Shown one piece after another: positions 9,800-31,453 of a DNA stretch of 32,000 bases; within the stretch, counting starts at the first letter, position 1; each line of letters opens with the position of its first letter. Location of the stretch: NCBI GenBank assembly GCA_022646745.1, contig CP060262.1:1320001-1352000 (forward strand). The letters are read 5' to 3'. The notes under the pieces were generated by a model that was not told the DNA's origin, ran no database searches, and saw only the letters and a list, made by a program, of their open reading frames with translations. Position numbers and translations under genes: made by a program. Origin of the DNA: Planctomycetales bacterium (GTDB taxonomy: Bacteria > 4484-113 > JAFGCY01).

Positions 9800-10102
9800 A
9801 TGAATTCTCTGAAGGATTACTTTGAAAGGGGAGATGAATCGAGTCTGGAATTCAGACGATTCCTGTTAACACTTATAGAGGAAGCTCGCAATGGGTTTAT
9901 CCATAAAGGAATAAACTCTGAGACTGGTGAAGAATATGAAACTCGATGGGAGAATGACAGTATCGAGGGTTTATTAAGTGCAATCGGAAGGCTGTTGGTT
10001 GCGGATTCTGAGTTTGCAAATGGAATTATTAATCAAAACGCTGAAGGCCTGACTTGGGATCAATTGATGAAGTTACTTAGGTACGCGACAGAGTACGAAT
10101 AG
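9800..10102 (+). CDS. small acidic hypothetical protein of the 'WEN...YE-COOH' type (possibly an immunity-like DUF family)
   Basis: AAAGGAGGTG lies 6 nt upstream of ATG 9800; the track lists GTG 9791. About 38-40% GC in hand-counted lines. The motifs RWENDSIEGLLSAIGRLL and a C-terminal ...W..L..LL..A..YE resemble a small-protein family I recall as DUF7660-like. That recollection is not verified. Confidence 0.6.
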   Translation: MNSLKDYFERGDESSLEFRRFLLTLIEEARNGFIHKGINSETGEEYETRWENDSIEGLLSAIGRLLVADSEFANGIINQNAEGLTWDQLMKLLRYATEYE

Positions 10103-10303
10103 TAATTTCTGCGCTCAATACTAAGCGTAACTTGAGCTTACGGCAGTCCCGGCATTGGTGGAACTTCTCATACGGCTAAACCCATACTTCCAGGCAGCGC
10201 TGGAGGAGTTCAGCTTGGACCAGTCCCTTTATGACAGTTTCAGCCTGAGTGGCAACATTAACAAGTGGTCAGACCCCTGAACTCCGGCGATTGCCTACGC
10301 CAA

Positions 10304-10415
10304 GGCCCGCCGGGAAATGTTGCCAATGGCAGCAGGCGGAGCTGCTGCCCTACCATGTGCCTCGGCGGCGCCGAATTCATTCGGCGATAGATTCCGCGAT
10401 TAAATTCGCGGCTAC
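10304..10415. repeat. direct repeat copy B (right flank of AT-rich cassette)
   Basis: ...ccgggaaatgttgccaatGGCAGCAGgcggagCTGCTGCCctaccatgtgcc...ccgaattcattcggcgatagattccgcgattaaattcgcggctacc, in the same orientation as copy A. The hairpin is 10328-10335 with 10342-10349. Confidence 0.75.
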
Positions 10416-10463
10416 CTTGTAAGGCCGGAGGCCGCGCAGCACGCCATAGGCGGGGAAAGAGAT

Positions 10464-17376: not shown

Positions 17377-19113
17377 TCAGTGCAGGGTGTCCACCGTCAT
17401 CAGCAGGCGGTTGCCGCTCACGTACAGCATGTGCCGCGTGGGCCCGAGGTCCAGAAGCGGGCAGTGGATGTCCAGCAGGTCATAGCAGCTGATCTGCTCC
17501 GGCTTGCTCCAGCTGGTGGTGCCGCCATCCGCGCCGTGCACCAGCACGTTGCGGTGGAAGCGCCACTGCTGGATGGCAACCTGCGGCACTCCCTCATACA
17601 CGTACATGCCCTGCGGCCGCGCCCCGCCATCCACCCCGAGGAAGGTCTGGCTGATGGACTGCGGCACGGACCAGGTCTCTCCGGCGCTGCTTGTCGCGGC
17701 GGAGTACAGCGTGTTGTCACCGCCGCTGCCATCGTATGTGACCGCCGGCAGTCCGTTGTACTCGACCAGGTACTGCTGCGTACCCTGGCCCATCGCGCCA
17801 TCCACCAGGTTGGCAAAGTTCCACTCGCTGCCGCTCGAATCCTTCGCGCGCACGTAGTACAGCTTGTCACCCTCGAAGTTGCGGATCAGCGTCGCCGGGT
17901 TGCCGTCGATGATCGCCAGCGGGGTCATTGCATCCGCGTTGCCATTCGCGCCGACCGACGCCAGTGAGATCGGCTCCGGCCAGGCCATGCCCTCCGGGTC
18001 ACTGGCGCGCACATAGTTCGCGCTGCGGAAGCCGCCGATGAAGCTGATCTCCAGCCCGAACAGGATCGCCGGGTTGCCGTTGACAACCTTCAGCACCGGG
18101 TCATGCCCGCTGTCCTCCAGCGCGTCGACGATCTCCGTGTCATCCCACACACTGCCGTTCTGGTCCATGCTGCGGATGTACTTCAGCTTGCCGGTGCCAT
18201 GCCCCTCGCCATCCTGCTGCGGGTCCTGGAAGGCGACCGCCGGCTTGCCGTTCACCTCGGCCATCGACACCCCGCCAACGTCATCGATGGAGGTCAGCAC
18301 CACCGGAAAGCCCCACTGGCTGCCAAGTACATTCAGGCTGCGGGAGTACTTCATGTCGAACTTGCCCGGCACATCCCCCGGCTCCAGATAGACCACGGCC
18401 GGATTGCCATTCACCAGCGCCGCGTCATAGCTGTGCTTCGCCTGCGGCGGGTCAGCCGTGAACTGGTACACATCGGACGCTTTCCAGGGCACGCCCAGCC
18501 CGACGCTGCCCAGCCCGGCCTCGTCATCCCCGAGGTACAGCACCAGCATGTAGGCCTGGCCAGCCGGCCCGGCATACTGCTCGAGTCCCGGCAGCTCCAC
18601 GAATTCAGGCTGCTGCGGCCGGTACCAGTCCCAGCGGTTCGTGTCGAAGTTGCCCAGTCCCACGAACAGCAGGTCCTGCCGTTGCGGCACCTTGTGCCAG
18701 CCCATGCTGGCGCAGGGCAGCTGCGGCAGTTCGCTCATGTCAAGCAGGAAGGTGGCATATGCCATGTCGCCGCCCTGCCGGGTATTGAACCAGTCACTGT
18801 TCATCCTGAGGAAGTGGTTCAGCTCATCGATGCTGACATTGCGGTTCGGCAGCTCGGTGTCGTAGTCGTCAAAGTAGGCCGGTGCTTCCCGGTGGCTGGA
18901 GCTGGCCAGCCTGGTGCCATTGCTCCGCGCTGCCAGTTCCAGCGGGGCGGGCAGTTCCAGTCCGTTTGCTGCCGACAGGCCAGTGTCATCCGGCAGCGAA
19001 GCGCCAGCCTGCTGCGGCATCGCATCGACGGGAGGTGCATCTGTGCCCTGTCCGGCGCAGGCGCAGGACAGGATGGCAATCAGCAGGCAGGCCAGGTGGT
19101 TGTGCAGGCGCAT
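17377..19113 (-). CDS. PL4: propeller lipoprotein
   Basis: GGAG lies 7 nt upstream of ATG 19113. Signal MRLHNHLACLLIAILS|C. N-domain FVGLGNFDTNRWDW. Blades VNGNPAVVY, EVNGKPAVAF, VVNGNPAILF, IIDGNPATLI, EYNGLPAVTY, YEGVPQVAI. Turns SMDQNGSVWDD, ASDPEGMAWPE, AKDSSGSEWNF, SSAGETWSV, GADGGTTSWSK. Confidence 0.88.
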   Translation of the reverse strand: MRLHNHLACLLIAILSCACAGQGTDAPPVDAMPQQAGASLPDDTGLSAANGLELPAPLELAARSNGTRLASSSHREAPAYFDDYDTELPNRNVSIDELNHFLRMNSDWFNTRQGGDMAYATFLLDMSELPQLPCASMGWHKVPQRQDLLFVGLGNFDTNRWDWYRPQQPEFVELPGLEQYAGPAGQAYMLVLYLGDDEAGLGSVGLGVPWKASDVYQFTADPPQAKHSYDAALVNGNPAVVYLEPGDVPGKFDMKYSRSLNVLGSQWGFPVVLTSIDDVGGVSMAEVNGKPAVAFQDPQQDGEGHGTGKLKYIRSMDQNGSVWDDTEIVDALEDSGHDPVLKVVNGNPAILFGLEISFIGGFRSANYVRASDPEGMAWPEPISLASVGANGNADAMTPLAIIDGNPATLIRNFEGDKLYYVRAKDSSGSEWNFANLVDGAMGQGTQQYLVEYNGLPAVTYDGSGGDNTLYSAATSSAGETWSVPQSISQTFLGVDGGARPQGMYVYEGVPQVAIQQWRFHRNVLVHGADGGTTSWSKPEQISCYDLLDIHCPLLDLGPTRHMLYVSGNRLLMTVDTLH

Positions 19114-19237: not shown

Positions 19238-20971
19238 TTACTCCAGCTGGCTGAAGATCAGCTGGCCTCCGCTGACATACAGGAAGGAAGGCACGCCGCC
19301 CAGCTCCAGCATGTCACTCTGGCCACTGAATTCCTGCGTGTTGCAGACATGCTCCGGCGCGCCCCAGCTCGTGCCGCCGGCGTCGTCCGAGCGCACGAAT
19401 ACGAGGCGGTTGGCATTGTACTGGTCCACCAGCACCGCCGGCTTGCCGTCCAGCATCACCAGCCCGCGCGGCTGTGACCCGGGATCATCGACGAAGTCGC
19501 TCTGATAGACCAGCACCGGGTCGTTCCAGCTGCCGCCATCGGCATCCTGCGCCAGACGCCAGTAGGTGTTGTCCGTGTTGTCAGTGTCGTACACCATCGC
19601 CGGCAGGCCACCCACGTCCATCAGGTACAGGCTGAAGCCGGAGCGCTGGGGCACGAAGAACGGGGTGCCGGATCCCCAGGCGGTCCCGTTGGCATCGGTG
19701 GCACGGATGTAGCCGACGGTCTCCTGGTTCAGGCCGGACTGGTAGGCGATTGCCGGAAAACCGTCAATCACGGCCAGCGGTGAGTTGTAGATCCCGTAGC
19801 CGCCGCTCACCGGACCCTTCACCGTGACCGGGCTGTTCCAGCTGCTGCCGTCCGCGGCACTGGCCTGTACGTACATCAGGCCCTTGCTGAATCCGTCAAG
19901 GTCCTCATTCGCGTAGGAGACTGCCGGCATACCGTTGACAATCGTCATGTATGGTGAGATTCCGTGGTTGTCTCCCATGCCGTCGTCAATCGTCATGCTG
20001 CTGCCCCAGGCAGTGCCCTGCGGGTCAGCCGAGCGGACGAACCTGAGTGAACCGTGGGCCACGAAGCCGTCGCCGGGGTTCACATATTCGAATTCCTGCC
20101 AGGCTATCGCCGGATTTCCATCAACAATGGCCAGGGAGATGTACGGCATGAACTCAGCGGGTCCCAGCACGTCGATCGCCGCGCCCCAGGCATTGCCGGC
20201 GCTGTCCAGCGCACGGGCGAACTTGACCGTGAACATTTCCGCGGCGAAGTCCTCCGCAATCCAGGCGATGGCCGGCTTGCCATCCGCCAGCACCAGTTCA
20301 ATGTCCTGGTCCAGCTGGATCTCGTCGAACTCGCCGTAATCCACCACCGGGCTTGTGCTCCACTCGCTGCCGACGCTCACGCTGCCGAGCTGCAGGGTGT
20401 TCGGGCCGCTCTGCAGCACCAGAACAAGCATCCGGCTGGCGGCATCAGTGTACGGATCAAGGGAGGAAAGCTCGGCAACCTTGGCGGAATTGAACCATTC
20501 CCAGCGATTGCTGTCAAAGTTGGCAACTGCGAAATAGGCCATGCCCTCATACGGACCGGCGACCCAGTCCACCCGCACCCGCGGCAGCGGGCTGAGCCCG
20601 GACAGGTCGAAGCTGAACATCGCGAAACCGAGGTCGGCCGGGTCATGGCTGCTTGACCAGCCCCCGGGGATGTACAGCGTGTCCTCGCCGAACAGGCTGA
20701 ATACACCCTGGCTGGGCAGGCTGGCGTCATAGTCCCTGCCGAGGAGCAGGGCGAAGTCACCGGCCGCACTGGACTGTCGTGATGGTCCGGCGCCAGCGGG
20801 CAGCGCCAACGGGTCCGGCAGGCCAGGTATGAACTGCGGGGCTCCAGGGCTGTCATCAGCCTGCAGATTGACCACCGCATCAGGCATAGGCTGTGGGGAC
20901 TGCTGGCCTCCACAGGCACTGAGCGCGATCATCGAAATCAGCAAGGGAAGAATCCTGGCAATCCTGGGCAT
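19238..20971 (-). CDS. PL5: propeller lipoprotein (7 recognisable blades)
   Basis: GGAGAG lies 4 nt upstream of ATG 20971. Classic lipobox MPRIARILPLLISMIALSA|C. N-domain YFAVANFDSNRWEW. G-x-P-A strands occur at aa 231, 285, 347, 404, 455, 509 and 559, spaced 50-62 aa apart. Turns SADPQGTAWGS, SAADGSSWNS, ATDANGTAWGS, AQDADGGSWND, SDDAGGTSWGA. Confidence 0.9.
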   Translation of the reverse strand: MPRIARILPLLISMIALSACGGQQSPQPMPDAVVNLQADDSPGAPQFIPGLPDPLALPAGAGPSRQSSAAGDFALLLGRDYDASLPSQGVFSLFGEDTLYIPGGWSSSHDPADLGFAMFSFDLSGLSPLPRVRVDWVAGPYEGMAYFAVANFDSNRWEWFNSAKVAELSSLDPYTDAASRMLVLVLQSGPNTLQLGSVSVGSEWSTSPVVDYGEFDEIQLDQDIELVLADGKPAIAWIAEDFAAEMFTVKFARALDSAGNAWGAAIDVLGPAEFMPYISLAIVDGNPAIAWQEFEYVNPGDGFVAHGSLRFVRSADPQGTAWGSSMTIDDGMGDNHGISPYMTIVNGMPAVSYANEDLDGFSKGLMYVQASAADGSSWNSPVTVKGPVSGGYGIYNSPLAVIDGFPAIAYQSGLNQETVGYIRATDANGTAWGSGTPFFVPQRSGFSLYLMDVGGLPAMVYDTDNTDNTYWRLAQDADGGSWNDPVLVYQSDFVDDPGSQPRGLVMLDGKPAVLVDQYNANRLVFVRSDDAGGTSWGAPEHVCNTQEFSGQSDMLELGGVPSFLYVSGGQLIFSQLE

Positions 20972-21079: not shown

Positions 21080-21170
21080 TTAGCTGTTTAGCGCCTGGGG
21101 GCTGCGGGTAACAAACATGGTTGCCGCAGGAGGCAACCCCCAAACAGTAATCTCCATCAAGGATGTGTGT

Positions 21171-21707
21171 ATGTACAGGAATGTACTGATGATGATTTCC
21201 CTTGTGATCGTGCTGTTTGCCGCTTCCTGCGGGGGCGGCGGGTTCACGGTCGGCGATCCCGGTGGCGGCGGCACTCCCGCTGACAACACAGCCCCCGAGG
21301 TCGTGATCAGCGGCATCAGCGAAGGCAGTGCCTACGGCGAGCAGCAGCCCGGCGTCAACTTCCTCAATGTGAAGGGTGTGGCGGCTGACACCGGCGGTGT
21401 CGCCAACATGGCGATGCGCATCAACGGCACGCTGGTCGCTGCCAGCAATGACAGCGAGCTCAGCTTCGGCTGGGACGTGACCGGCTATGATGACGGTGCC
21501 TACGAGGTGGCGGTGCAGGCCAGCGATGCCAGCGGCAACGTGGCTGAGGAGGTCGTCAACGTGATTGTTGACAACGACCTGATCTTCATCCCGCCGGGCA
21601 GCTTCTGGCCTGAGCTGGACCTCGACTTCGGCATCGAGGACCCGATCCCCGACCCGGATCCGGGCCCGTGGGTGCCGGACCTCGACATCATCTTCCCCGG
21701 CCTGTAA
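21171..21707 (+). CDS. small lipoprotein with bacterial Ig-like domain
   Basis: AAGGA lies 7 nt upstream of ATG 21171; the track start at 21117 adds 18 aa. Signal MYRNVLMMISLVIVLFAAS|C followed by a Gly-rich linker. DNTAPEVVISGI...VKGVAADTGGVANMAMRINGT...WDVTGYDDGAYEVAVQASDASGNVAEEVVNVIVDN is a typical Big/cadherin-like Ig pattern. Confidence 0.8.
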   Translation: MYRNVLMMISLVIVLFAASCGGGGFTVGDPGGGGTPADNTAPEVVISGISEGSAYGEQQPGVNFLNVKGVAADTGGVANMAMRINGTLVAASNDSELSFGWDVTGYDDGAYEVAVQASDASGNVAEEVVNVIVDNDLIFIPPGSFWPELDLDFGIEDPIPDPDPGPWVPDLDIIFPGL

Positions 21708-21771: not shown

Positions 21772-21797
21772 AAAGCCTGCTCCACGGAGCAGGCTTT
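21772..21797. terminator. bidirectional intrinsic terminator between convergent genes
   Basis: aaagcctgctc-cacg-gagcaggcttt is a perfect 11-bp stem. It is flanked by gaaaag on the left and tttaccttt on the right, which gives T-runs in both orientations. It overlaps the TAA (21796-21798) of the cohesin-like gene. Confidence 0.55.
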
Positions 21798-23022
21798 ACC
21801 TTTCCTCTGGGCTCCGCCTGTTCCCATGCTGCATGTCCGAACTCCATACGGGCCGCTGGACCGGCAGGGGCAGGACATTGTCACCGCTGGCATCCAGTAC
21901 GTAGCGCGATCCCGCTTCCATCAACATTGTCAACCTGCAGTCCGCAGGGTCCCTGATATCCTGCCTGGCACTGAACCTGAGCTGGGCAATCCGCCCCTCG
22001 CCCGCCGGTTCCGCCTGCGGGGAGCGGCTGTCGATTGCCAGCAGCACCCGCCCGTATTCCTTGTCCGGCTGGGCGAAGTAGATGCGGGCATCAGCACAGT
22101 CATCGAAGAAGCCACCGAGCTGCGCATCCCGGAAGCTGAGCTTCGTCCTGTCAAACTCAATCACGAACAGCCCCTTGCCGAAAGCCGGCAGCCCTGTGGC
22201 ATCCAGCTCGACGTAGAGATCCCCGTCCTCACGCAGCGTTTCAGGCAGCTCAGTGACAAGTTCTACCAGCGGATCCGGCTCCCGCACCACGACTTCCATC
22301 TCCAGGAAATCCGTCAGAGCCTCGCCATCCGCCAGGGCCCGGACCCTGATGCGCGCCGGCCCCGGCCTGTCCGGTGTCCACCTCAGCTGCGGTTCAGTTG
22401 TAGTGACCCTTGTTGCTTCATCAATTCCGGCATCTGGCAACAGTGTGTCATTGGCAGGCTGGATAAGTGGCTCAACTAGCGCCTGCCTGCCGGAGAATGC
22501 CACTGTCACAGCGGGATCCGCTGGCTCATCATCCGGCGTTCCGGCCAGTGACGCCAGTGCCGATTCCAGCCCGCTTCCCACCGTACCGAGTGCTTCAGCA
22601 AGCGTATCCGTCCCCGGACCGGCGCTATCTGGGCCGGCCTCTGCCGCTGCCTGATCCACGGGCAAGGGACTGACCTGGTCCGCTGCGGAGCTGGCACCGC
22701 TGTCAAGCTGCCATTCATATTCAAGCTCCCGGTCTGAGGGGTTGTCATCCTCGAGCAGGATAAGGTAGCTTTCTCCGGGGTGCACATCACCGGTTTCCAT
22801 GTACAGCCGCCCAAGCCTGACAACAGCCTGCGCTTCCACAGGCTCACTTTCCGCTGATGCTTCCTCCCCCTCGCTGTCCCCACCCGTCGGGGTGCGGTAC
22901 TGCTCCTCTCTTCCGGCAGTATCCGCCGCATCGGCTCCGGCCGGAGTGCCGCTGCTGGTGCAGGCGCCGAAGAGCACAGAGCTGAGCATGATGCCAAGAG
23001 CTGCGAACCTGAGAACTCCCAC
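21796..23022 (-). CDS. lipoprotein with acidic linker and C-terminal cohesin-like module
   Basis: GGGAGGA lies 6 nt upstream of GTG 23022. Signal (M)GVLRFAALGIMLSSVLFGA|C. Acidic low-complexity region (DSEGEEASAESEPVE). The cohesin-like segment is at aa 252-385. Confidence 0.8.
   Translation of the reverse strand: MGVLRFAALGIMLSSVLFGACTSSGTPAGADAADTAGREEQYRTPTGGDSEGEEASAESEPVEAQAVVRLGRLYMETGDVHPGESYLILLEDDNPSDRELEYEWQLDSGASSAADQVSPLPVDQAAAEAGPDSAGPGTDTLAEALGTVGSGLESALASLAGTPDDEPADPAVTVAFSGRQALVEPLIQPANDTLLPDAGIDEATRVTTTEPQLRWTPDRPGPARIRVRALADGEALTDFLEMEVVVREPDPLVELVTELPETLREDGDLYVELDATGLPAFGKGLFVIEFDRTKLSFRDAQLGGFFDDCADARIYFAQPDKEYGRVLLAIDSRSPQAEPAGEGRIAQLRFSARQDIRDPADCRLTMLMEAGSRYVLDASGDNVLPLPVQRPVWSSDMQHGNRRSPEER
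21868..22269 (-). other. cohesin-like module
   Basis: LYVELDATGLPAFGKGLFVIEFDRTKLSFRDAQLGGFFDD...IYFAQPDKEYGRVLLAIDSRS...GEGRIAQLRFSAR follows the cohesin strand pattern. That pattern is (h-x-h-x-[YF]-D-x-x-x-h) ... (G-x-h-x-h-x-h) ... (G-x-h-A-x-h-x-F). Confidence 0.55.
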
Positions 23023-23234
23023 AGGCCGTCCTCCCCTGTCAATCCGTGATAGACAGCAATGACGCGGCCGGGACGGTCACGTTCAACGGAGTGTTAGTCT
23101 GAGGCCGACCCGGCCCAATTGCTCCCAGGAGCCACACAGCAACTCCAGCTGCTTCTCATTCTGCTTCTGCTTCTCATTCTGCCAAAGGCCTACTGATTTC
23201 TGCCCACTGACCACTGCCCACAGACTACTGATTG

Positions 23235-23251
23235 CCAGGCTTACAGCCTGG
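23235..23251 (-). terminator. short hairpin 7 nt after the stop of the 23259-24623 gene
   Basis: ccaggct-tac-agcctgg is a 7-bp stem with no U-tract. The next gene starts 212 nt further on. Confidence 0.3.
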
Positions 23252-23258
23252 CCTCCTC

Positions 23259-24623
23259 CTACGGCACCTGCACGAACTCGCAGACCGGCCCCAGCTCCTC
23301 GCCGAGGTACGGCCTGAGGTAGAGGTAGCTGCCGCTGGCCGGGGTGAAGGGAAGTTCGTACGAGAATGTCAGCGGCAGGGGTAAATCGAGATAGCCCATG
23401 CTCAGCAATGGAGTGTTGCTCTCCTCACCCCAGTAGCCATCAGGAAGCTGGGCCTCGCTGGCAGCGAAATACAGTCTGTAGCCCTCGAAACCGCCACCGA
23501 AGTGCAGGCCCAAAGGTGAGAGGTCGGCGATACTCACCTGGCTATCCTGATTGTAGTCAGCGTACTGCACCTCGCCCGTTGGATCGCTTTTGGATGAATC
23601 GCCCAGGTACCTGCCAATCATTGTCAAGTCAGTCGCATCAACGATGCCGTCCCGGTTGCCATCGCCAGCGAAGTACTGATGCCAGCTGAGCATGTTCGCT
23701 GTCTCACTGTACTGAAGTGCGGTGCTTTCGACCCTGACTGGCAGAAGCAGGCCGAAAGCCGACTCGTACAGTCCGCCACTGCGGGAGAAACAGGCCACGC
23801 GGTCCTTGGTATCCGGTCCGTCGTCCACATACACCCAGTAGCGGCTTGCCAACTCTCCCACTAATTCAAGTTCAAACTGCTTCTGGCCCCCCGGCCCGGT
23901 GCTCGCCATTTCCAGCGGGACCGCCCTGCTTGCCAACCCGGCATCGCTGCTGCCTGGGTAGCGCGTCATGCCGCCGGTGACCGTACAGCCCTCAAAGTCG
24001 CGCCCGAAATTCCGGGCAATGGCCACGATGTCCGACAGGTTGATCTCCCCGTCGAAGTTGCCATCCACCACATACTGCATTGACCCTGCCGGGAACCAGC
24101 CGTAGTCCAGCGCGACATTCCTGTCAGCCGATTCCCCGATGTGCTTGGAAAGGGGCACAAGATCAGCTGCATTCACGCTGCCATTCTGGTCATAGTCGCC
24201 ACCGAACAGGTACAGCCAACGCAGTGTCCGGGCCTGGTGATTGACCCGCAGGTGCAGGTCATCACCATAAAGTGGAATGCGCTTGCTGTAAGCGAAGGAT
24301 GCTGAGCGGGTCCCGTCAGCATCTGCTTCTTCCAGCAGCCTCGCCAGCTCCGCCTTCAGCTCCGCGAACACTTCCGCATCGACATCCGCAGGCGTTTCCA
24401 GCGCGGCGATCTCGCGCATCGCGGCGGTGAGGTCGATTGCCACAGTTCCCGATTCCGATACCTGCTGCACAATCTCAGCGGGGTCCGGCATCCTGCCGGA
24501 CTGAGCCAGATCAGTGGTATCGACACCACTGCCGCAGCCGCCTGCCAACATGCTTGCCAGAATGCATGCAGCACTTGCCATCAGTCCGGCAATCCTACAT
24601 TCACTACTCGTTCTCTTTTCCAT
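23259..24623 (-). CDS. Doc1: lipoprotein with two dockerin modules, each followed by an ~80-110-aa module
   Basis: GGGAGA lies upstream of ATG 24623; the track start at 24689 adds 22 aa. Signal MEKRTSSECRIAGLMASAACILASMLAGG|C. Dockerin A spans 24003-24200 (DYDQNGSVNAADLVPLSKHIG / DGNFDGEINLSDIVAIARNFG). Dockerin B spans 23496-23666 (DGNRDGIVDATDLTMIGRYLG / DYNQDSQVSIADLSPLGLHFG). Confidence 0.85.
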   Translation of the reverse strand: MEKRTSSECRIAGLMASAACILASMLAGGCGSGVDTTDLAQSGRMPDPAEIVQQVSESGTVAIDLTAAMREIAALETPADVDAEVFAELKAELARLLEEADADGTRSASFAYSKRIPLYGDDLHLRVNHQARTLRWLYLFGGDYDQNGSVNAADLVPLSKHIGESADRNVALDYGWFPAGSMQYVVDGNFDGEINLSDIVAIARNFGRDFEGCTVTGGMTRYPGSSDAGLASRAVPLEMASTGPGGQKQFELELVGELASRYWVYVDDGPDTKDRVACFSRSGGLYESAFGLLLPVRVESTALQYSETANMLSWHQYFAGDGNRDGIVDATDLTMIGRYLGDSSKSDPTGEVQYADYNQDSQVSIADLSPLGLHFGGGFEGYRLYFAASEAQLPDGYWGEESNTPLLSMGYLDLPLPLTFSYELPFTPASGSYLYLRPYLGEELGPVCEFVQVP

Positions 24624-24739
24624 GTCCGTCTCCCGTCTCGTCAGTCCTCGACATTCCAACTGGCTGGTCTGCTCTCTGCTCTCTGCCAACGCATTCTCCT
24701 TCTGCTTCTCATTCTGCCAACTGCCTACTGCCCACTCGC

Positions 24740-26209
24740 CTACGGAATCTGGATCACTTCGGAGGGATAGCCCAGCACCTGCAAGCTGCTGCCAGGAATG
24801 TCAACCACCGGGCGCAGCCAGAGCCAAGCACCGCTCGGTAGATCCTCCAGTATGAGTTCGTGCCACAGAAGCGAATCCGGTAGATGTGCGGCGTAGTTCT
24901 GATACCACTCCGTCGCCTCGTATGCCTCCTGGCTGGGAAAGTCCTCACGCAGAGGTCCGCCGCGCCTGATATAGATCGTGACAAAGCTCGCGTAGGGTGC
25001 GGGTCCTTCCGACACCGGTATCTGTGCGTTCAGCGGCAGCTCAGCTTCATCCAGGGTCATGTAAACGTTTGTCGTAGGCCGCCACGCGGTAAAGAACATG
25101 GGCAGAGAAATGATGTCCGTGGAGCCGATATGGCCGTCACGGTTGAAGTCCAGACCAGCAAGGAAAGGCGACTCGGCCGCATCCGAATAAGTCTTGTCCA
25201 TGTGGATGGCCCAGTCGTCAATGTCAGCGACATTCACTTCCGAGTTCCTGTCGGAATCTCCGACCGCAACCTCGTCATATGTGAGTGCCCGGCTTGCTGG
25301 ATCGTAGCTCAGGCGGCTGTAGCTTGTGTAGCGGATCTGCAGCGGGTCATAGCACAGCTGGCTGACACGTCCGGAACCGGCAGTGCCGACCCAGTAGTAC
25401 ATTTCCGGCTGGTCCGCGAAACCGCTGAAGCTGAACTGCCGCAGGCCGCTTTCCGATGTACTTGCCTCCTGGGGCGGATCGCTTGCCAACGGAGCAATCA
25501 GGGTCGGTCCGCTGCCCTGCCACGGGTAGTCACGGATGTCCTTCGATCCGTACAGCAGCATCCTGGGCGAGGTGCCGTAGTTGCGGGCAATAGGCACGAT
25601 GTCCGCAATGTTGATGATGCCGTTGCGGTCACCGTCAATGTGGCGCAGCAGGCGGTTCTTGCCGGGGCTGCGTCCGATGTTGATTGCCAGTGGCACGAGG
25701 TCGGCGGCGTTGACGATCCCGTTCTGATCGTAGTCTCCGTCCACGCAGTACTCCGCCGTGAGCAGCGGGCTGGAACTGGTGAAGCTGGTCACGGGACGGC
25801 TCAAGTGCTCATCGTAGGCATCCATGTCGGAATCCCAGAATTCGGCATCACTGGTGGATCGCGGCTCATCTCCGAGGCCTGGTGCTGATACCTCAGTCAA
25901 ATTCTCAGGGATGCTTCCGGTCGTCAGCAGCCTCGCCAGCTCCGCCTTCAGTTCGGCGAACACTTCCGCGTCGACATCCGCGGGAGCCTCCAGCACAGCG
26001 ATTTCGCGCAGGGCGGCGGGGAGGTAGATTGGGGCGTCTGGGGCGGTAACTAATCCAGTGGCAGTCTCAGAGTCCGATCCGGCTGCATTGCCGGTCTGGA
26101 TTGCAGCTTCGCCAGCCGCAGGAAGCTCAGGCGTGCGCGCATCTCCGCCGCAGCTCCCGAGGAGCAGCATCACCAGTATCAGTGTCCCGTATCCGATCCG
26201 TCCGCACAT
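24740..26209 (-). CDS. Doc2: lipoprotein with two dockerin modules, tandem paralogue of Doc1
   Basis: GGGGGA lies 6 nt upstream of ATG 26209. Signal MCGRIGYGTLILVMLLLGS|C. Dockerin A spans 25571-25744 (DGDYDQNGIVNAADLVPLAINIG / DGDRNGIINIADIVPIARNYG). Dockerin B spans 25094-25261 (DSDRNSEVNVADI / DFNRDGHIGSTDIISL). Confidence 0.85.
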   Translation of the reverse strand: MCGRIGYGTLILVMLLLGSCGGDARTPELPAAGEAAIQTGNAAGSDSETATGLVTAPDAPIYLPAALREIAVLEAPADVDAEVFAELKAELARLLTTGSIPENLTEVSAPGLGDEPRSTSDAEFWDSDMDAYDEHLSRPVTSFTSSSPLLTAEYCVDGDYDQNGIVNAADLVPLAINIGRSPGKNRLLRHIDGDRNGIINIADIVPIARNYGTSPRMLLYGSKDIRDYPWQGSGPTLIAPLASDPPQEASTSESGLRQFSFSGFADQPEMYYWVGTAGSGRVSQLCYDPLQIRYTSYSRLSYDPASRALTYDEVAVGDSDRNSEVNVADIDDWAIHMDKTYSDAAESPFLAGLDFNRDGHIGSTDIISLPMFFTAWRPTTNVYMTLDEAELPLNAQIPVSEGPAPYASFVTIYIRRGGPLREDFPSQEAYEATEWYQNYAAHLPDSLLWHELILEDLPSGAWLWLRPVVDIPGSSLQVLGYPSEVIQIP

Positions 26210-26318
26210 GGTCTTATCCCCCGTGCAATCACACTATCAGCCCATCAAATCCTACAGGAAAAGGCAGGCTATTACAGGGGACACTTGCGCGGCAGTTTGC
26301 GGCTGACACTTCGTAGCT

Positions 26319-26388
26319 GGCAGAAAGCAGAGCGCTGAAAGCAGACTCGGTGTGCGAATATAGCGGTCTGCTCTCTGCTATCTGCTCC
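26319..26388 (-). terminator. long imperfect purine/pyrimidine hairpin directly 3' of PL6
   Basis: Arm ggcagaaagcagagcgctgaaagcagac (26319-26346) faces arm gtctgctctctgctatctgctcc (26367-26388). On the minus strand this gives a GCAGAC/GUCUGC core extended by A-U and G-U pairs. It starts 8 nt after the stop at 26396-26398. Confidence 0.4.
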
Positions 26389-26395
26389 CTGATCT

Positions 26396-29248
26396 CTAAG
26401 GCACGAAGTACCGCGCCACCTTCAGCTCCGCCGCTGCCAGGTCGTGGTAGACAACGAGCGGCTTGCCCAGCGCACTGCCGACGGACAGGTAGGCCGACTC
26501 GTGCGCATCCGTGTCATACTCGCCGACGCCCGTTGCCACCACACCGCCCACCGGGAAGTCATCGCTGATCTCCGGCGTCTGGGTCGCGCGGTATGTCACC
26601 GCCTGCTCTTCCGTCGAGTAGTAGGCCAGCCCGAGGAAGCCCGCCACGTTGGCACTCGCCAGGTGGTAGCCGTAGTCGTCGGACTCGCTGTCCGGGATGT
26701 ACAGCGGCGCTGTCCAGTCCGTGGTTGAAAGGTCGTTCGCCTTGCGCACCAGCAGCCCGCCGGTCGTCTTGTTGCGCGCCAGCAGGTAGGGCCGGTCGGT
26801 GATGCTCGTCGCCGCGGCGAACTGCAGTTCGTGGTCGCCCGGGGTGTTGTTGCCAAGCGAGTAGGGCAAAAGCGTCCAGTTCGTGCCCTGGTTGTTCACG
26901 GCCTTGCTGAAGTAGGCCCGCCAGGGTGTGTTGTACTGGTCATTGTTCAGCACGTACCACACCGCCGGACGCCCGTCCGTGCCAAGCGTATTGGCCTCGC
27001 AGGTCGTCAGCGCGGTCTTGTCGAGGTGGAAGTCGCTGCCCTTCCAGACAGTGCCGCCGTTGAACAGGTCCCAGTCGCCTCCGGTCGTTGCCACCGGGTC
27101 CGTCGCCCGCACGTAGTAGATGCTGTACGGGTCATCCACGTCGCCGGTATGCCAGACGTAGGCCAGCGCAGGGTTGCCATCGATGATGTTCAGGCTCGGG
27201 CTGTGGTCCAGCCCGTCACTGGTGATCTGCACCTGCTGGAAGCTGGTGGCGTCCGCCGCGTTGCCGACTACGTAGTAGATGCCGGGGTTGGCACCGACCC
27301 GCTGGTAGGCCATCGCCGGCCGGCCGCCGGCAAGTTCCCTGAGCGAGATGTGCTTCGCAGTCACCGACAGCGGCACGGCCTGCGGGATGTTCCACTCCGT
27401 GCCCTGCGGGTTGGCGGCGCGCACGTACTTCAGTGCATTGAACTGGCGGTAGGCGATCGCCGGGTTGCCGTCAATCACGCTCATCATCGGGTCGGCCGGG
27501 CTGGTGTCCGACACGTTGTCAATCGCCGTGGACAGCCAGCCTTCGGTGGACAGCTGCAGCGTATCCACCGCCGTCGCCAGGTCGTCATCCGTCACCCGCA
27601 GGCGCACGGTGTGGAAGCCGCCGCCTGTCAGGTCGATCTCCTGCACCTGCGCGCCATCCTCGATCTCATATGTGCCGTCCCCGTCCAGGTCCCAGTCGTA
27701 CTGCTCAATGCTACCGTCCAGGTCGTCACTCATCGTGGCTGACAGCGTGGCGGTCCAGGGTGCCACGCCGCTAGTGCTGTCCGCGGTGATATGCGCCACC
27801 GGGGCCAGGTTGTCAAGGTCCGGCGCGTAGAGGTACAGCGTGTTGGAGATGCGGCCCTTGTAGGTGGCGACCACACTGAAGTTGCCCTGGAAGATGTCAA
27901 CGATGTCCATCTCCGCCGTTTCCTGGTTGATCTCGCCCACGTTCGGCACCACGAAGCCCGAGCCGATCAGGCCCGCGCTGACTTCGCGGATGCGGATGAT
28001 CTCACCGCCGCCCGTGCCGGATCCGCCGCCCGTTGAGAAGCCGCCGATCAGGAAGTACTGCGACTCATCGTTGATGGTGACGTCGCCATCCACGGAGTGG
28101 TTCAGCATCAGGAAGTAGTTGAAGTTCGGGTCGACGAAGTAGGGGTTGCTCTCGCTGCCGCTGCCTGACAGCGGGGCCGTGTCCAGGTCCAGCACCGGCC
28201 CCGGCGCGCCTGCCAGCTCAACCACCTGGCTGACCGTGCCCTCATTGCCTTCGCTGTCAACCGGCCGCGCCCAGAGCGTGACCGGCCCGGCCGGGGCGGA
28301 GGGCTGGATGTAGCCGTAGACCAGCCTGTCCGTGACCGTGTCGCCGACGCCGTTGGCAAACGGCACGCTGCTGGCCGCCGGGATGGTGCTCGCCGCATCG
28401 GAGGAGGCGGGCACGTCATCCGGGTTGCTGCTGGCGTAGATGTTGTAGCCTCCCAGGGCGTCATTGCCGAAGTTCTGCCCGATCACGGTCAGGTCGGCCA
28501 GGTTGATCTCACCGTTGCCATCGCCGTCCACCACGGTCTCCACCGGGTAGCTCTCCACGCCGATGAACAGCAGGTCCTCGCCGAAGGGCCCGCTCTTGCC
28601 GAAGTGCAGGCCGAGCGGGGTCAGGTCGGCGATCGTGACCACGCCGTTCTGGTCATAGTCACCGGGGTTGGTGTACTGCACGGTGCTGATCAGCGCATCG
28701 CTGCCGGAGAACATCGGCCCGGCCAGCGCGCTCATCGGGGCGCTGGCATTCACGTTGCGCGGCACCATCGCCGTGCGCCGCATGGCCGGCTGCGGCCCGC
28801 GGCTGAAGTGCAGCGTTGCCAGCGTGCCGGATGAATCGAGCGGCTCAGCCAGGTCGAAGTTCGGCAGCACATGTCCGGTCTGCACCAGGCCCGGCTGCAC
28901 ATTCACGCCAAGCGACAGCAGCTGCCTGCCATCGAGCCCGGCCGCGGTCTCGATGCTGTCCAGGCTGTACTGCCGCGGGTCATAGGCAATGTCGGTGTAT
29001 AGCGTATTCAGCTGGGCAGCTTTCGCCAGGTCAATCGTGGCGGTGATCCCGCCATCGTCCTCCACCATGCTGAACCGCACGGCGGAGCGGTCGCCAAGCA
29101 GTGATCCATCCGCAATGCTCAGCGTCGGCTTTTCTGGATACTGTGCGCGTTCCGCCGCCGCATCCGGCAGGCTGTTGTTGCCCGCTCCGCACGCGGCAAG
29201 CAGCAGCAGGGCGACGCCTGCCGCCAGGTTCCTGGTCATAGCAATCAT
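26396..29248 (-). CDS. PL6: lipoprotein with cohesin-like module + dockerin + PKD + propeller
   Basis: Start ATG 29248 (MIAMTRNLAAGVALLLLAA|C) has GGAGAG 6 nt upstream. ATG 29254 is possible. The track start GTG 29341 reads through a noncoding motif that is conserved, out of frame, upstream of PL7. Blades are VIDGNPAIAY, LAGGRPAMAY, IIDGNPALAY, TDGRPAVWY, with turns AANPQGTEWN and VNNQGTNWT. Confidence 0.85.
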   Translation of the reverse strand: MIAMTRNLAAGVALLLLAACGAGNNSLPDAAAERAQYPEKPTLSIADGSLLGDRSAVRFSMVEDDGGITATIDLAKAAQLNTLYTDIAYDPRQYSLDSIETAAGLDGRQLLSLGVNVQPGLVQTGHVLPNFDLAEPLDSSGTLATLHFSRGPQPAMRRTAMVPRNVNASAPMSALAGPMFSGSDALISTVQYTNPGDYDQNGVVTIADLTPLGLHFGKSGPFGEDLLFIGVESYPVETVVDGDGNGEINLADLTVIGQNFGNDALGGYNIYASSNPDDVPASSDAASTIPAASSVPFANGVGDTVTDRLVYGYIQPSAPAGPVTLWARPVDSEGNEGTVSQVVELAGAPGPVLDLDTAPLSGSGSESNPYFVDPNFNYFLMLNHSVDGDVTINDESQYFLIGGFSTGGGSGTGGGEIIRIREVSAGLIGSGFVVPNVGEINQETAEMDIVDIFQGNFSVVATYKGRISNTLYLYAPDLDNLAPVAHITADSTSGVAPWTATLSATMSDDLDGSIEQYDWDLDGDGTYEIEDGAQVQEIDLTGGGFHTVRLRVTDDDLATAVDTLQLSTEGWLSTAIDNVSDTSPADPMMSVIDGNPAIAYRQFNALKYVRAANPQGTEWNIPQAVPLSVTAKHISLRELAGGRPAMAYQRVGANPGIYYVVGNAADATSFQQVQITSDGLDHSPSLNIIDGNPALAYVWHTGDVDDPYSIYYVRATDPVATTGGDWDLFNGGTVWKGSDFHLDKTALTTCEANTLGTDGRPAVWYVLNNDQYNTPWRAYFSKAVNNQGTNWTLLPYSLGNNTPGDHELQFAAATSITDRPYLLARNKTTGGLLVRKANDLSTTDWTAPLYIPDSESDDYGYHLASANVAGFLGLAYYSTEEQAVTYRATQTPEISDDFPVGGVVATGVGEYDTDAHESAYLSVGSALGKPLVVYHDLAAAELKVARYFVP
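27548..27808 (-). other. PKD domain of PL6
   Basis: APVAHITADSTSGVAPWTATLSATMSDDLDGSIEQYDWDLDGDGTYE...HTVRLRVTDDDLATA. Confidence 0.8.
28463..28666 (-). other. dockerin module of PL6
   Basis: GDYDQNGVVTIADLTPLGLHFGK ... DGDGNGEINLADLTVIGQNFGN. These are two EF-hand-like 12-residue loops (D-x-D/N-x-N/D-G-x-h-x-x-x-D), each followed by a helix. Confidence 0.85.
28796..29128 (-). other. cohesin-like module of PL6
   Basis: ITATIDLAKAAQLNTLYTDIAYDPRQYSLDSIETAAGLDG...LLSLGVNVQPGLVQTGHVL...SGTLATLHFSRG. Confidence 0.55.
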
Positions 29249-29321
29249 GTTCATCTCTCCGTCTGGCGGGCCTGTTTGGCCCACTTCCACCCGTGCGGTC
29301 TGTGCGCCGCCGGGCAACCGA

Positions 29322-29363
29322 CTGTCATACCCATTATCCACATCAGGTTAAGCAATGGTTAAA
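29322..29363 (-). promoter_or_regulatory. conserved 42-bp upstream module (PL6 copy): TTTAACC-ATTGC-TTAACC-N7-GATAAT-GGGTAT
   Basis: 39/42 identical to 31412-31453. The minus strand reads TTTAACCATTGCTTAACCtGaTGTGGATAATGGGTATgACAG. This gives a direct TTAACC repeat spaced 11 bp centre to centre. GATAAT lies 18 nt after the first TTAACC, which is sigma70-like geometry. Confidence 0.5.
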
Positions 29364-29386
29364 TGCTACCGGAATCATTTCCAGCA

Positions 29387-31378
29387 TCAGTAGAACACAT
29401 AGAAATTCACGAACTTGATGCCGCCACTTTCCACGGTGAAGGCCATGCATGGATGCGGCCCCAGCAGGCGCATCTCCTTCAGCTCCACCACCGGGATCTG
29501 CTCAATCACGGGCCCGGTCAGCACATAGCCCGCCGCAGAGCCATCCGCACTGAAGGCGCTGGCCACCTGCATCGCATTCACATCCGTCCATGTGGCCATC
29601 AGCCCGCCGTAGGCCGCCAGCAGCTCCGGTGCAAACTGCCCGGGCTGTGAAACCGACAGGTCCACCGGAGCATCCCAGTTGCCGCCGCTGAGGTCGCTCG
29701 ACTCATACTGCTGCAGCATGTTGCTCGCATCATAGGCCGCTAACCCGATGACCTGCCCACCGTACTCGCAGATCCCACCGGGCCGCACATTGGTGCTGGC
29801 CGCGCCGAGCTGGATCGCCTGCTCAGCCGGCAGGTCATTGCCGTCCCAGTTGTAGCGGCGCACATAGGCCAGCGAATCCTGGCTGTCGCGGTAGAAGGCG
29901 AGGAAGCTGTCTCCCTGCTGCAGCAGGCTGCCCATCTGCAGCTTGGTGGTGTAACCCAGCTCCGTGAACAGCGTGGCTGCGGGGGCGTCGCCAAGGTAGA
30001 AGTAAAGCGTTGTCATCCCGTTGTGGCCGAACACCAGCGGCCGTCCGGCGATCTCCATCATCGCGAACTGGTCCTCATTGGACACGCTGGACTTCACCAT
30101 CGGGCTCCAGCTGCTGCCGTCGCCATCAGCGCCAATCGTGTAGTAGCAGGTCTGGCCCACGTCCACGGGCACGCTGATCGCCGGCCGGTTGTCAACCACA
30201 CCGAGCTCCGGCTGCCAGGCATCGGTATATGTGCCGGGCAGCTCGACTTTCGGTTCCCAGAGCAGGCCGGCCCGGTCTACGGACCGGCAATAGTACAGCC
30301 GGCGGTCGCCATTGCCGGCGGACCAGGCAGCCGCAGGCCGGTTGTCAATTATTTCAAGCCGTGGCTCAGTGACGGACCAGCTTGCGTCGTAATGCTCAAT
30401 CTCGGTGAGGTGCCACTGCTTCTCCCATTCTTGAGTCAGGTTGCCCGCCGGTCCCTCCCCAGCGGAACTGCCTGCCCGGACCCAGTAGCGATCGGCGAAG
30501 GCGGGGCTGAGGTCTGTATGGCGGAACTGCTTGCGCTCAGCAGGACTATTGTCAATGTCTGCCAGGGCCAGGCTGACGACATTACGTGTCCCGGCGCCGT
30601 TGGCAGCCGTTGCCTCGGAGGGATAGCCCTGGCCCTCCACACCAGCGTACAGAGTGTATCCTTCCACCAGGTTGCCGAAATGCACTGCGATCGGCGTGAT
30701 ATCCGATACGTTGATCTCCCCGTTGCCATCGCCGTCGACCATGTACTCCATCTGGCCTTCACTGAAGGGCCCGCTGCGGCCGAGGTTGATCCCGAGCGGG
30801 GTCAGGTCGGCGATGTTCACCTCGCCATTCTGGTCGTAGTCCCCGGGGTTCGTGTAGTACCAGCTGAGGATGCTCCAGCGCGCATTGCGTGATAGCTGTG
30901 GCTGCGCATCGGCCACCGCGCTGGGCTTGCGCCGGACTTCCGCTCCGCGCCGGAACTCAATCGTCGCCAGCAGGCCGCTGCCATCCACGCCCGGCGGGTC
31001 AGCTCCCGGCTGCAGCTCACCGTACTGCACTCTGCCGCCGCCATTGCCCGCCAGCAGGTGGATCGCTTCGCTGCCCAGCAGCCCGGCACTGTCCGCCTCG
31101 CCTGCGGTCCACTGTGAGCTGTCGTAGGCGATCTCCAGGTAGGCATGGCTCAGGGCCTTTGCATTGGCAGCCTCGATGCTGACAATCGCTCGCTCGGCAT
31201 CCCGTTCAACCGACATCCGGAACTCAGCGCTGCCACCCATCGCAAAGCTCTCCGGCAGCACGCGCAGGCTGAATTCCTTGGCGCCTGCTGACTGCTCCGG
31301 ACCCGGGCCTGCCGCTCCGCAAGCGGCGAGCATGATGGCAAGCAGGCTTGCCTGCAGTAGTGTAATCAGTCTGTACAT
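29387..31378 (-). CDS. PL7: lipoprotein with cohesin-like module + dockerin + divergent propeller
   Basis: GGAG lies 7 nt upstream of ATG 31378. Signal MYRLITLLQASLLAIMLAA|C. Cohesin-like module at 30944-31276 (YLEIAYDSSQWTAGEADSAGLLG...GSGLLATIEFRRG). Dockerin at 30671-30850 (GDYDQNGEVNIADLTPLGINLG / DGDGNGEINVSDITPIAVHFG). Degenerate blades IIDNRPAAAW, VVDNRPAISV, EIAGRPLVF, with turn GADGDGSSWSP. Confidence 0.85.
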   Translation of the reverse strand: MYRLITLLQASLLAIMLAACGAAGPGPEQSAGAKEFSLRVLPESFAMGGSAEFRMSVERDAERAIVSIEAANAKALSHAYLEIAYDSSQWTAGEADSAGLLGSEAIHLLAGNGGGRVQYGELQPGADPPGVDGSGLLATIEFRRGAEVRRKPSAVADAQPQLSRNARWSILSWYYTNPGDYDQNGEVNIADLTPLGINLGRSGPFSEGQMEYMVDGDGNGEINVSDITPIAVHFGNLVEGYTLYAGVEGQGYPSEATAANGAGTRNVVSLALADIDNSPAERKQFRHTDLSPAFADRYWVRAGSSAGEGPAGNLTQEWEKQWHLTEIEHYDASWSVTEPRLEIIDNRPAAAWSAGNGDRRLYYCRSVDRAGLLWEPKVELPGTYTDAWQPELGVVDNRPAISVPVDVGQTCYYTIGADGDGSSWSPMVKSSVSNEDQFAMMEIAGRPLVFGHNGMTTLYFYLGDAPAATLFTELGYTTKLQMGSLLQQGDSFLAFYRDSQDSLAYVRRYNWDGNDLPAEQAIQLGAASTNVRPGGICEYGGQVIGLAAYDASNMLQQYESSDLSGGNWDAPVDLSVSQPGQFAPELLAAYGGLMATWTDVNAMQVASAFSADGSAAGYVLTGPVIEQIPVVELKEMRLLGPHPCMAFTVESGGIKFVNFYVFY

Positions 31379-31411
31379 GGCATTGCTCCTGCCCCCGCAT
31401 GGGGCAAACCG

Positions 31412-31453
31412 CTGTAATACCCATTATCCACAGCGGGTTAAGCAATGGTTAAA
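31412..31453 (-). promoter_or_regulatory. conserved 42-bp upstream module (PL7 copy)
   Basis: ctgtaatacccattatccacagcgggttaagcaatggttaaa. Its proximal end is 34 nt upstream of ATG 31378. Confidence 0.5.

Follow-up and report, generated by a model that had tools for sequence, protein, structure and literature searches.

The cohesin and dockerin modules, the plug and socket known from cellulosomes, occur together in five consecutive minus-strand open reading frames (ORFs), P1 to P5, which span positions 21796–31378 of a 32,000-nucleotide stretch of a Planctomycetales bacterium genome (contig CP060262.1, positions 1,320,001 to 1,352,000). This whole stretch is hereafter called the window, and positions are given in its own numbering. 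The five predicted lipoproteins carry three cohesins and six dockerins, and two of them end in β-propeller heads. The reading we favor, at about even chances, is that of a non-cellulosomal cohesin–dockerin cluster whose products pair in trans, in a Ca2+-dependent manner, into a membrane-tethered assembly with propeller heads. A first-pass annotation of this DNA had described five consecutive genes with lipoprotein signals, encoding one cohesin-only protein, two multi-dockerin proteins without cohesin, and two proteins with cohesin, dockerin, and propeller. The ORFs, each with a lipobox-like Cys, and this parts list were borne out, and the interpretation as a whole is partly supported. The five genes are as follows.

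21796–23022 (−): P1 gene, 408 aa; lipobox (LFGAC) at the start, cohesin C-terminal (ORF)
23259–24623 (−): P2 gene from M23, 454 aa, ORF reaching 24689; lipobox, shared helical segment, dockerin 1 (VP-type), Ig-like module, dockerin 2, Ig-like module; without cohesin
24740–26209 (−): P3 gene, 489 aa; lipobox, shared helical segment, dockerin 1, dockerin 2; without cohesin
26396–29248 (−): P4 gene from M32, 950 aa, ORF reaching 29341; lipobox, cohesin, dockerin, Ig-like module, unassigned region, PKD domain, propeller
29387–31378 (−): P5 gene, 663 aa; lipobox, cohesin, dockerin, Ig-like module, β-propeller

Five public contigs carry an identical P5, and the neighbors called there are 950, 489, 454, and 408 aa long; the starts of P2 (M23, 24623) and P4 (M32, 29248) are likely as in the public assemblies. 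P2 and P3 have an N-terminal helical segment in common (ETPADVDAEVFAELKAELARLL), and the DNA encoding it is 87% identical. In P1, the region between the lipobox and the cohesin is possibly a split Ig-like domain with an acidic low-complexity insert.

Divergent cohesins in P1, P4, and P5

21838–22275 (−): P1 cohesin, residues ~250–395; phmmer homologs matching Pfam Cohesin
28778–29134 (−): P4 divergent cohesin, ORF residues 70–188; same family as the P5 cohesin
30929–31279 (−): P5 divergent cohesin, residues 34–150; AlphaFold2 (AF2) model, Foldseek, family profile, and hhalign

When the five proteins were scanned with Pfam and NCBIfam, no cohesin was called; taken alone, these negative scans would have wrongly refuted the cohesin finding. 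A word-indexed homolog search with P1, both at full length and with its C-terminal domain, returned its ortholog as the sole match. An exhaustive phmmer search with the C-terminal domain against 1.84 billion representatives retrieved 43 homologs, of which 18 had E-values below 1e-30. Pfam Cohesin was matched by 29 of 35 homologs of this domain (E ≤ 0.01, best 2.6e-38), and the matches coincide with the stretch aligned to P1. Their scores of 26.8–30 bits can be read against the Pfam gathering cut-off of 24.1 bits: 28.4 bits for P0071 (residues 488–580), 26.8 for P0074, 30.0 for P0078 (residues 585–681), and 29.6 for P0099.

The N-terminal region of P5 yielded 67 homologs. The AF2 model of P5 residues 1–318, built from a 51-sequence alignment, has a mean predicted local distance difference test score (pLDDT) of 91.8 and a predicted template modeling score (pTM) of 0.84, with pLDDT above 90 across cohesin residues 37–144. 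In this model, the P5 cohesin adopts the nine-stranded jelly-roll fold. Foldseek matched it at probability 1.00 to the cohesins 4uyp_A, 5k39_A, 2y3n_A, 2b59_A, 4fl4_B, 5nrm_A, 6kgf_C, and 3ghp_B (E of 2e-3 to 8e-3; target-normalized template modeling (TM) scores of 0.40–0.52), and the other matches, at lower probability, were tandem FN3 domains.

Relatives of these proteins were taken from a census of 70 related loci with 156 family members. Among the P4/P5-type N-terminal domains of the related loci, 20 of 78 match Pfam Cohesin (E ≤ 0.1, best 3.4e-9), the window copies being negative. A profile of this N-terminal family, searched against PDB sequences, gave cohesins in 10 of 12 matches (3l8q_A at 0.0011, 4uyp_A at 0.0093); a mixed-domain profile retrieved dockerins only, and the cohesin-only profile was needed for the cohesin matches. 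The two families are also linked to each other. First hhalign runs with thin profiles gave P of about 1e-3, and the P1 family subsequently aligned with the N-terminal cohesin family at 96.9% probability (P = 1.7e-10, 92 columns) and with the Pfam-positive cohesin set at 89%. Moreover, the hidden Markov model (HMM) of the P1 family directly matches the N-terminal domains, down to 2.8e-7. Collectively, the Pfam matches of the homologs, the hhalign link, and the fold match of P5 indicate that the P1, P4, and P5 modules are divergent but genuine cohesins. The three cohesin-like modules of the first-pass annotation were thus upheld, by HMM similarity through homologs and profiles and by the structural similarity of the P5 model to cohesins. 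The P1 cohesin is more canonical than the divergent P4/P5 type.

P1-family proteins are mostly 700–870 aa long, with very long low-complexity inserts and tails such as GGNTT repeats. P0070 (UNM07883.1) is an 839-aa homolog, P0071 ends in C-terminal ankyrin repeats, and P1 is a compact version of 408 aa. We considered whether P1 is a truncated pseudogene of the 700–870-aa homologs and rejected this: what it lacks relative to them is low-complexity inserts and tails, and the DNA downstream holds no frameshifted remnant.

Six dockerins of at least two flavors

23997–24209 (−): P2 dockerin 1, VP-type
23490–23675 (−): P2 dockerin 2
25568–25747 (−): P3 dockerin 1, VP-type
25082–25270 (−): P3 dockerin 2, divergent
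28463–28675 (−): P4 dockerin, Ca-loops at ORF residues 228 and 272
30671–30856 (−): P5 dockerin, residues 175–236, TP-type helices DLTPLG and DITPIA

Dockerins were sought with a regular expression for a 12-residue EF-hand-type loop (D1, D/N3, D/N/S5, D12) followed by a helix start. In the 14 window proteins tested, exactly 12 Ca-loops were found, all of them in P2 (loops starting at residues 165, 209, 343, and 378), P3 (159, 192, 318, and 354), P4 (228 and 272, ORF numbering), and P5 (180 and 215). They form six pairs with a spacing of 33–44 residues, which agrees with the six dockerins previously counted. All 12 loops retain the Ca-ligand residues at positions 1, 3, 5, and 12, and the two-fold internal symmetry of each dockerin is kept. 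In the P5 model, a helix follows each Ca-loop (residues 189–198 and 224–232). Additionally, each dockerin helix contains a Pro (e.g., DLTPLG), which is atypical.

Pfam Dockerin_1 (PF00404) was matched by P2 in two stretches (1.6e-14, 54.3 bits, above the gathering score of 22.9 bits), fell below the cut-off for P3 (E = 0.031, 14.9 bits) and P5 (E = 0.016, 15.8 bits), and had no match in P4. Relatives of P4 and P5 have precomputed PF00404 matches, and 8 of 33 related dockerin proteins match this model. The family profile weakly matched Clostridium thermocellum dockerins among PDB sequences (4fl4_A, E = 0.011; 2ccl_B, 0.041), and P5 alone retrieved there only calmodulin-like noise, located on the dockerin. 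The Pfam check proposed by the first-pass annotation came out mixed: Dockerin_1 in P2 and a PKD model (PKD_4) in P4 were matched, and Cohesin and BNR were not matched directly.

The dockerins come in two flavors. TP-type dockerins (DLTPLG/DITPIG) reside on cohesin-bearing proteins, and VP-type dockerins (DLVPLA/DIVPIA) form dockerin 1 of the adaptors P2 and P3. In all four syntenic loci, the VP-type dockerin 1 lies on cohesin-less adaptors, and VP-type loops are commoner in cohesin-less proteins (12/72 vs. 4/113, p = 0.0028). Among 70 paralogs, the mean identity is 51% for dockerins, 28% for cohesins, and 26% for the Ig-like modules.

Lipoprotein signals

A lipobox-like Cys after an n-region and an h-region is present in all five proteins (LFGAC, LAGGC, LLGSC, LLAAC, and MLAAC from P1 to P5), and the n-regions are basic and followed by the hydrophobic stretch. 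These calls are pattern matches and not the output of a trained predictor; P1 (FGAC) and P2 (AGGC) depart from the canonical L-[AS]-[GA]-C. The Cys itself is nearly invariant in family alignments (C20 in the P5-type alignment), and "ACTSS" is conserved in the P1 family. No SLH or LPXTG match was found in the five proteins by Pfam, and a lipobox Cys is there instead. The signal peptide of P5 is located as follows.

31319–31378 (−): P5 signal peptide with the lipobox MLAAC at its end; pattern match, translation checked

The first-pass annotation had regarded it as unusual that every component is a lipoprotein. This holds for all five, as well as for neighboring paralogs, other secreted window proteins, and 126 of the 156 family members in related loci, so it does not set the cluster apart.

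Ig-like stalk modules and β-propeller heads

30431–30667 (−): P5 Ig/FN3-like "X" module with YWVR motif; AF2 β-sandwich, FN3 matches, family HMM census
27554–27811 (−): P4 PKD domain, residues 511–592; Pfam PKD_4 at 1.7e-6, 28.4 bits against a cut-off of 27
26399–27544 (−): P4 β-propeller head, ORF residues 600–981, about seven blades
29390–30427 (−): P5 β-propeller head, residues 318–663; aligned with six window paralogs, fold predicted from the P4 model

An Ig/FN3-like X module, a β-sandwich with a YWVRP motif, comes after every dockerin. For the P4 head, the AF2 model from an 8-sequence alignment (pLDDT 69.9, pTM 0.74) shows about seven four-stranded blades. Its Foldseek matches at probability 1.00 include the PLL5 fucose lectin 8q83 (8e-10), the Pseudomonas aeruginosa pseudaminidase 3h6j/2w38, and GH145 5mul, and further matches are PL42 7esl and sialidases. 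The propeller family had no match in Pfam or NCBIfam, or among PDB sequences by profile search, and only the residues of the repeat motif are invariant among the paralogs. No strict Asp-box (SxDxGxTW), FRIP motif, or Pfam BNR match was found in the seven window propeller paralogs. The motif [SA]xDxxGxxW, one residue longer than the Asp-box, recurs in them, and "Asp-box-like" is a fair label. Of the cargo previously described as PKD plus Asp-box-like propellers, the PKD domain and the propeller fold thus stood, and a strict Asp-box and a BNR match did not. A sialidase identity of the propeller, which the fold alone would permit, is not supported, as neither Asp-box nor FRIP motif is present.

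No glycoside hydrolase, carbohydrate-binding module (CBM), or protease domain was found by Pfam in the 17 window proteins scanned, in agreement with the earlier claim that the window encodes none. However, the absence of any carbohydrate-active enzyme cannot be asserted for the propeller, whose fold comes closest to those of fucose lectins, sialidase/pseudaminidase, GH145, and PL42. From the modeled fold, the heads may bind glycans or conceivably even be catalytic.

Five more minus-strand lipoproteins of the window carry the orphan propeller without cohesin or dockerin (1982–3640, 3673–5337, 6087–8330, 17377–19113, and 19238–20971). Their N-terminal ~200 aa resemble a β-sandwich in sequence, and the protein at 6087–8330 additionally has two PKD domains. 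Together with P4 and P5, this one propeller family, which is without database annotation, accounts for at least 7 of the ~20 window genes.

Relatives, gene order, and architecture census

The relatives are metagenome-assembled genomes (MAGs) labeled "UBP7 HKST-UBA01/03", "Planctomycetales bacterium Ww346", "AC1.30", and others, the HKST MAGs being derived from saline activated sludge (PMC8495973). GTDB UBP7 (Ca. Bimafiota) has been described with genomes of 0.83–1.39 Mb and 36–53% GC (PMC11382960). In the lineage studied here, the window has ~62% GC, and the relatives include a 4.1-Mb contig. These values clash with the description of UBP7, and the depositors' label for loci L005 and L006 (JAGRNR01, JAGRNT01) is therefore doubtful. 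A literature search found no paper that ties UBP7 to dockerins.

The first-pass annotation had asked whether the gene order recurs in related genomes, and it does so in four related MAGs. The order EamA, P5, an extra cohesin–dockerin paralog in some loci, P4, and two multi-dockerin genes is kept in L005, L006, and L008, and L007 keeps the P5–P4 part without the multi-dockerin genes. L005 is from the same species. The window and L005 (15139–18563) are ~96% identical over P5 and P4 and 89% over P1, and P3 and most of P2 have no nucleotide similarity to their L005 counterparts (protein identity of 38% and 47%). Only the 5′ ends of P2 and P3, encoding the signal peptide and the helical segment, are conserved (24333–24439 and 25925–26031); for P3, the similarity to its positional counterpart is limited to the first ~100 nt. 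This pattern resembles that left by replaced cassettes or by diversifying selection acting on the double-dockerin genes. Next to P1 and divergent from it in orientation, a plus-strand gene (21117–21707) encodes a small lipoprotein with a bacterial Ig domain (Big_7, 1.3e-6), and in L005 its position is occupied by another cohesin–dockerin gene.

In the census, the commonest architecture is lipobox, cohesin, dockerin, one to ~10 X modules, and propeller. Two MAGs encode at least 16 cohesin-plus-dockerin lipoproteins per genome. Overall, 82 proteins have both cohesin and dockerin, 47 have dockerins only, and 5 have cohesins only. Each cohesin protein of the window has one cohesin, and only 2 of the 156 family members have two cohesin-type matches. 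The cargo on the 33 dockerin proteins of relatives includes Peptidase_S8 (2), PQQ_2/BamB-like (5), SGL/SSL, CAP, AhpC, and fn3 domains, and no Pfam glycoside hydrolase, polysaccharide lyase, carbohydrate esterase, or CBM domain was found among them. Locus L033, from a more distant MAG, encodes at 1156–6462 (−) a 1768-aa protein with a dockerin, a Peptidase_S8 subtilase (3.3e-36), fn3 domains, and a propeller. The fusions to subtilase, PQQ/BamB-like, SGL-like/strictosidine-synthase-like, CAP, and AhpC/redoxin domains indicate that the dockerin system of this lineage serves diverse cargo, and the window cluster would be a local sample of a genome-wide system.

Proposed assembly and alternative explanations

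In the assembly that we propose, lipidation would seat P1–P5 on a membrane, and the Ca2+-loaded dockerin of one chain would plug into the cohesin of another. The bivalent P2 and P3 would act as cross-linkers or adaptors, and the propeller heads, ligand- or glycan-binding rather than catalytic, would be held at the distal end of Ig-like stalks. The TP and VP flavors of dockerin, together with the N-terminal and P1 flavors of cohesin, suggest a two-specificity code analogous to cellulosomal type I/II. Pairing in trans is favored because most of the 47 dockerin-only proteins could find a cohesin only on cohesin–dockerin proteins, with just 5 cohesin-only proteins available. Furthermore, if partners share a docking interface, dockerins would be expected to stay more alike than cohesins, and their mean identity is indeed the higher one. 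The enrichment of VP-type loops in cohesin-less proteins points the same way. A membrane-tethered complex that assembles itself is plausible.

Several observations weigh against such an assembly. Pfam Cohesin (PF00963) has no match in P1, P4, or P5 at E ≤ 1, and the P4 propeller model is of moderate confidence. The genes are separated by 116–236 nt and P5, P4, P2, and P1 have promoter-like elements of their own, so the cluster is not a tight operon. P1 is adjacent to the other genes in L005 only, as the L006 and L008 loci end before its position. Because unrelated-looking P2/P3 alleles occur in a 96%-identical relative, fixed partner specificities within the cluster are doubtful. The lipobox, as called by its pattern, is a property of most family members and not a design feature of the cluster, and a lipoprotein of a diderm organism, which this possibly is, may be periplasmic and is not necessarily surface-exposed. 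That the proteins build a lattice or an adhesion complex is wholly a matter of inference. Finally, the pTM of the P5 model is equally compatible with one rigid intramolecular unit of cohesin, dockerin, and Ig-like module.

This last point leads to the strongest alternative, which we consider distinctly less probable than pairing in trans but worth serious attention. The cohesin, dockerin, and Ig-like module of P4/P5-type proteins may form a self-satisfied intramolecular clasp that positions the stalk and the propeller on the membrane. There would then be no intermolecular lattice, and only the dockerin-only P2 and P3 would bind a free cohesin such as that of P1. The P5 model fits this arrangement, with its high pTM and pLDDT above 90 over three modules joined by a structured ~30-residue linker. 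Across 51 sequences, the order of cohesin, dockerin, and X module hardly varies, nor does the Trp of the linker (W173), and a cohesin nearly always shares its chain with a dockerin (82 proteins vs. 5 cohesin-only). However, such a clasp would leave the 47 dockerin-only proteins of the loci partnerless apart from those 5, and the dockerin helices are conserved although the paralogous cohesins share only 28% identity, which fits a shared trans interface better.

Alternatively, the cluster could be an enzyme-recruiting scaffold resembling the "planctosome", with cohesins that recruit dockerin-bearing hydrolases encoded elsewhere and propellers that bind substrate, concentrating protein or glycan degradation at the cell envelope. 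We regard this as unlikely. In its favor, Planctomycetes have been the subject of a comparable proposal (PMC6461901). Related genomes encode subtilases with dockerins (Peptidase_S8, best E = 1e-42) as well as other enzyme-like cargo, and lectins and glycan-active enzymes come closest to the propeller in fold. In contrast, neither the window nor the syntenic loci contain a dockerin-bearing hydrolase, and the subtilase examples come from more distant MAGs. Orphan propellers, not enzymes, are by far the dominant cargo, and no multi-cohesin scaffoldin was seen, each protein having one cohesin.

An extension of the trans reading, improbable to a similar degree, is a cell-envelope coat of a kind without a known counterpart in other lineages. 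Here, dozens of paralogous cohesin–dockerin lipoproteins would polymerize head-to-tail into a Ca2+-dependent two-dimensional network, an S-layer analog, with variable propellers displayed on Ig-like stalks and strain-variable double-dockerin cross-linkers rewiring the network. Least probable of all, and in our view quite unlikely, is that the dockerin-like modules pair with no cohesin at all. They would bind Ca2+ as structural elements or bind ligands, and would co-occur with the cohesin-like domains through common descent of a modular envelope family. In support of this, non-cellulosomal cohesins and dockerins are generally of unknown function (PMC5244752, citing Peer et al. 2009), the modules of the window are divergent and score below threshold or not at all in Pfam, and the helix Pro is atypical. 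Against it, the two partners have expanded jointly, in the same genomes and within the same chains, with the Ca-ligand positions and the two-fold dockerin symmetry retained.

Cohesin–dockerin pairs are among the strongest known protein–protein interactions and are widely used in synthetic biology. For their natural role outside cellulosomes, the lineage offers an unusually clean test case: five genes in a compact set, encoding three cohesins and six dockerins that show two or more flavors, in proteins predicted to be lipid-anchored, without enzymes, and with many paralogs on which specificity could be mapped. If the modules bind, cohesin–dockerin pairing would be a general envelope-assembly device in a Gram-negative-type uncultured bacterium, and the lineage would provide new orthogonal pairs, including dockerins with Pro-containing helices, together with a new β-propeller sequence family. 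If they do not bind, this would be an informative negative for many "non-cellulosomal" annotations in metagenomes.

Upstream elements and other DNA features

31402–31453 (−): 52-nt element upstream of P5, promoter-like TTAACC-18-GATAAT
29312–29363 (−): second 52-nt copy, upstream of P4, 88% identical
24692–24730 (−): 39-nt element upstream of P2, promoter-like TTGGCA-16-GAGAAT
23157–23195 (−): second 39-nt copy, upstream of P1, 92% identical; TTGGCA-16-GAGAAT/CAGAAT across the two copies

The paired elements suggest pairwise co-regulation of P5 with P4 and of P2 with P1 rather than a single operon. When all loci were searched, both the 52-nt and the 39-nt elements were found in same-species contigs only, and this occurrence rules them out as a family-wide regulatory motif. 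An Rfam scan of the window gave no match.

Elsewhere in the window, direct repeats of ~130 nt at 9387–9517 and 10304–10416 are 87–88% identical and form strong predicted hairpins (DNA fold z = −3.4 and −2.8). Between them lies a ~0.8-kb segment of low GC (0.55) with a 103-aa ORF at 9791–10102 (+). From these features, 9387–10416 could be an attC-like or cassette-like mobile insertion.

Comparison with known systems

The P4 head resembles the seven-bladed fucose lectins of the Photorhabdus PLL/PHL type and sialidase-fold propellers (8q83, 5mxf, 3h6j/2w38, 5mul) in its modeled fold, with Foldseek E of 8e-10 to 1e-7 and TM scores of ~0.5–0.58. It differs from them in sequence, with 12–16% identity, no sequence-profile match, and no canonical Asp-box or FRIP motif.

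With the clostridial and ruminococcal cellulosomes and the Ruminococcus bromii amylosome (PMC4611034; PMC12484212), the cluster shares the cohesin jelly-roll, the duplicated EF-hand dockerin, and adaptors that combine cohesin and dockerin. As in cellulosomes, at least two apparent dockerin flavors occur, recalling type I/II, and an Ig-like X module adjoins the dockerin. In contrast, this module is located after and not before the dockerin, and the dockerin helices contain Pro. Unlike cellulosomes, the cluster has no multi-cohesin scaffoldin, carbohydrate-active enzyme, CBM, SLH, or sortase anchor, and the organism is not a Firmicute.

One Archaeoglobus fulgidus protein has both a cohesin and a dockerin. 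This non-cellulolytic species possesses a functional cohesin–dockerin pair (used in PMC9705933 and PMC6394049). Its system consists of a single pair or few genes, is not lipoprotein-based, and is without propeller cargo, whereas the lineage studied here has a family of at least 16.

The first-pass annotation had held that this arrangement has not been described as a system. That was overstated, as non-cellulosomal sets, the expansions in anaerobic methanotrophic (ANME) archaea, and the planctosome hypothesis precede it. Cohesin and dockerin modules outside cellulosomes are known from every domain of life (Peer et al. 2009, cited in PMC5244752 and PMC10066038). ANME archaea (ANME-1, ANME-2a) have ~80 cohesin and 149 dockerin domains, for which an adhesion role has been proposed (PMC5244752). 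Like these sets, the family described here has no cellulose link and a large lineage-specific expansion, and its role in adhesion or complex formation is a proposal only. Unlike them, nearly all of its members are lipoproteins, one cohesin and one dockerin stand in tandem at the N-terminus of one chain, sequence-orphan propeller cargo is carried on an Ig-like stalk, and cargo-less double-dockerin proteins are encoded alongside.

The "planctosome" of Nemodlikiaceae Planctomycetes is a hypothesis in which a cohesin anchor and a dockerin–cohesin adaptor hold dockerin-bearing peptidases (PMC6461901). Both the planctosome and the reading proposed here are purely in silico models of a Ca-dependent assembly in a Gram-negative-type uncultured lineage, with a cohesin anchor, an adaptor with dockerin and cohesin, and no cellulases. 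The planctosome has a lamin-tail anchor and M12B and M14 peptidases as cargo, whereas our cluster has a lipobox anchor, propeller cargo, and bivalent dockerin-only adaptors. In addition, our cluster contains no peptidase, and subtilase–dockerin fusions occur in distant relatives only. Collectively, what is new here is the lipobox anchoring throughout, the N-terminal tandem of cohesin, dockerin, and X module with at least 16 paralogs in a genome, the cargo of orphan propellers, and cargo-less double-dockerin lipoproteins that differ radically between near-identical strains.

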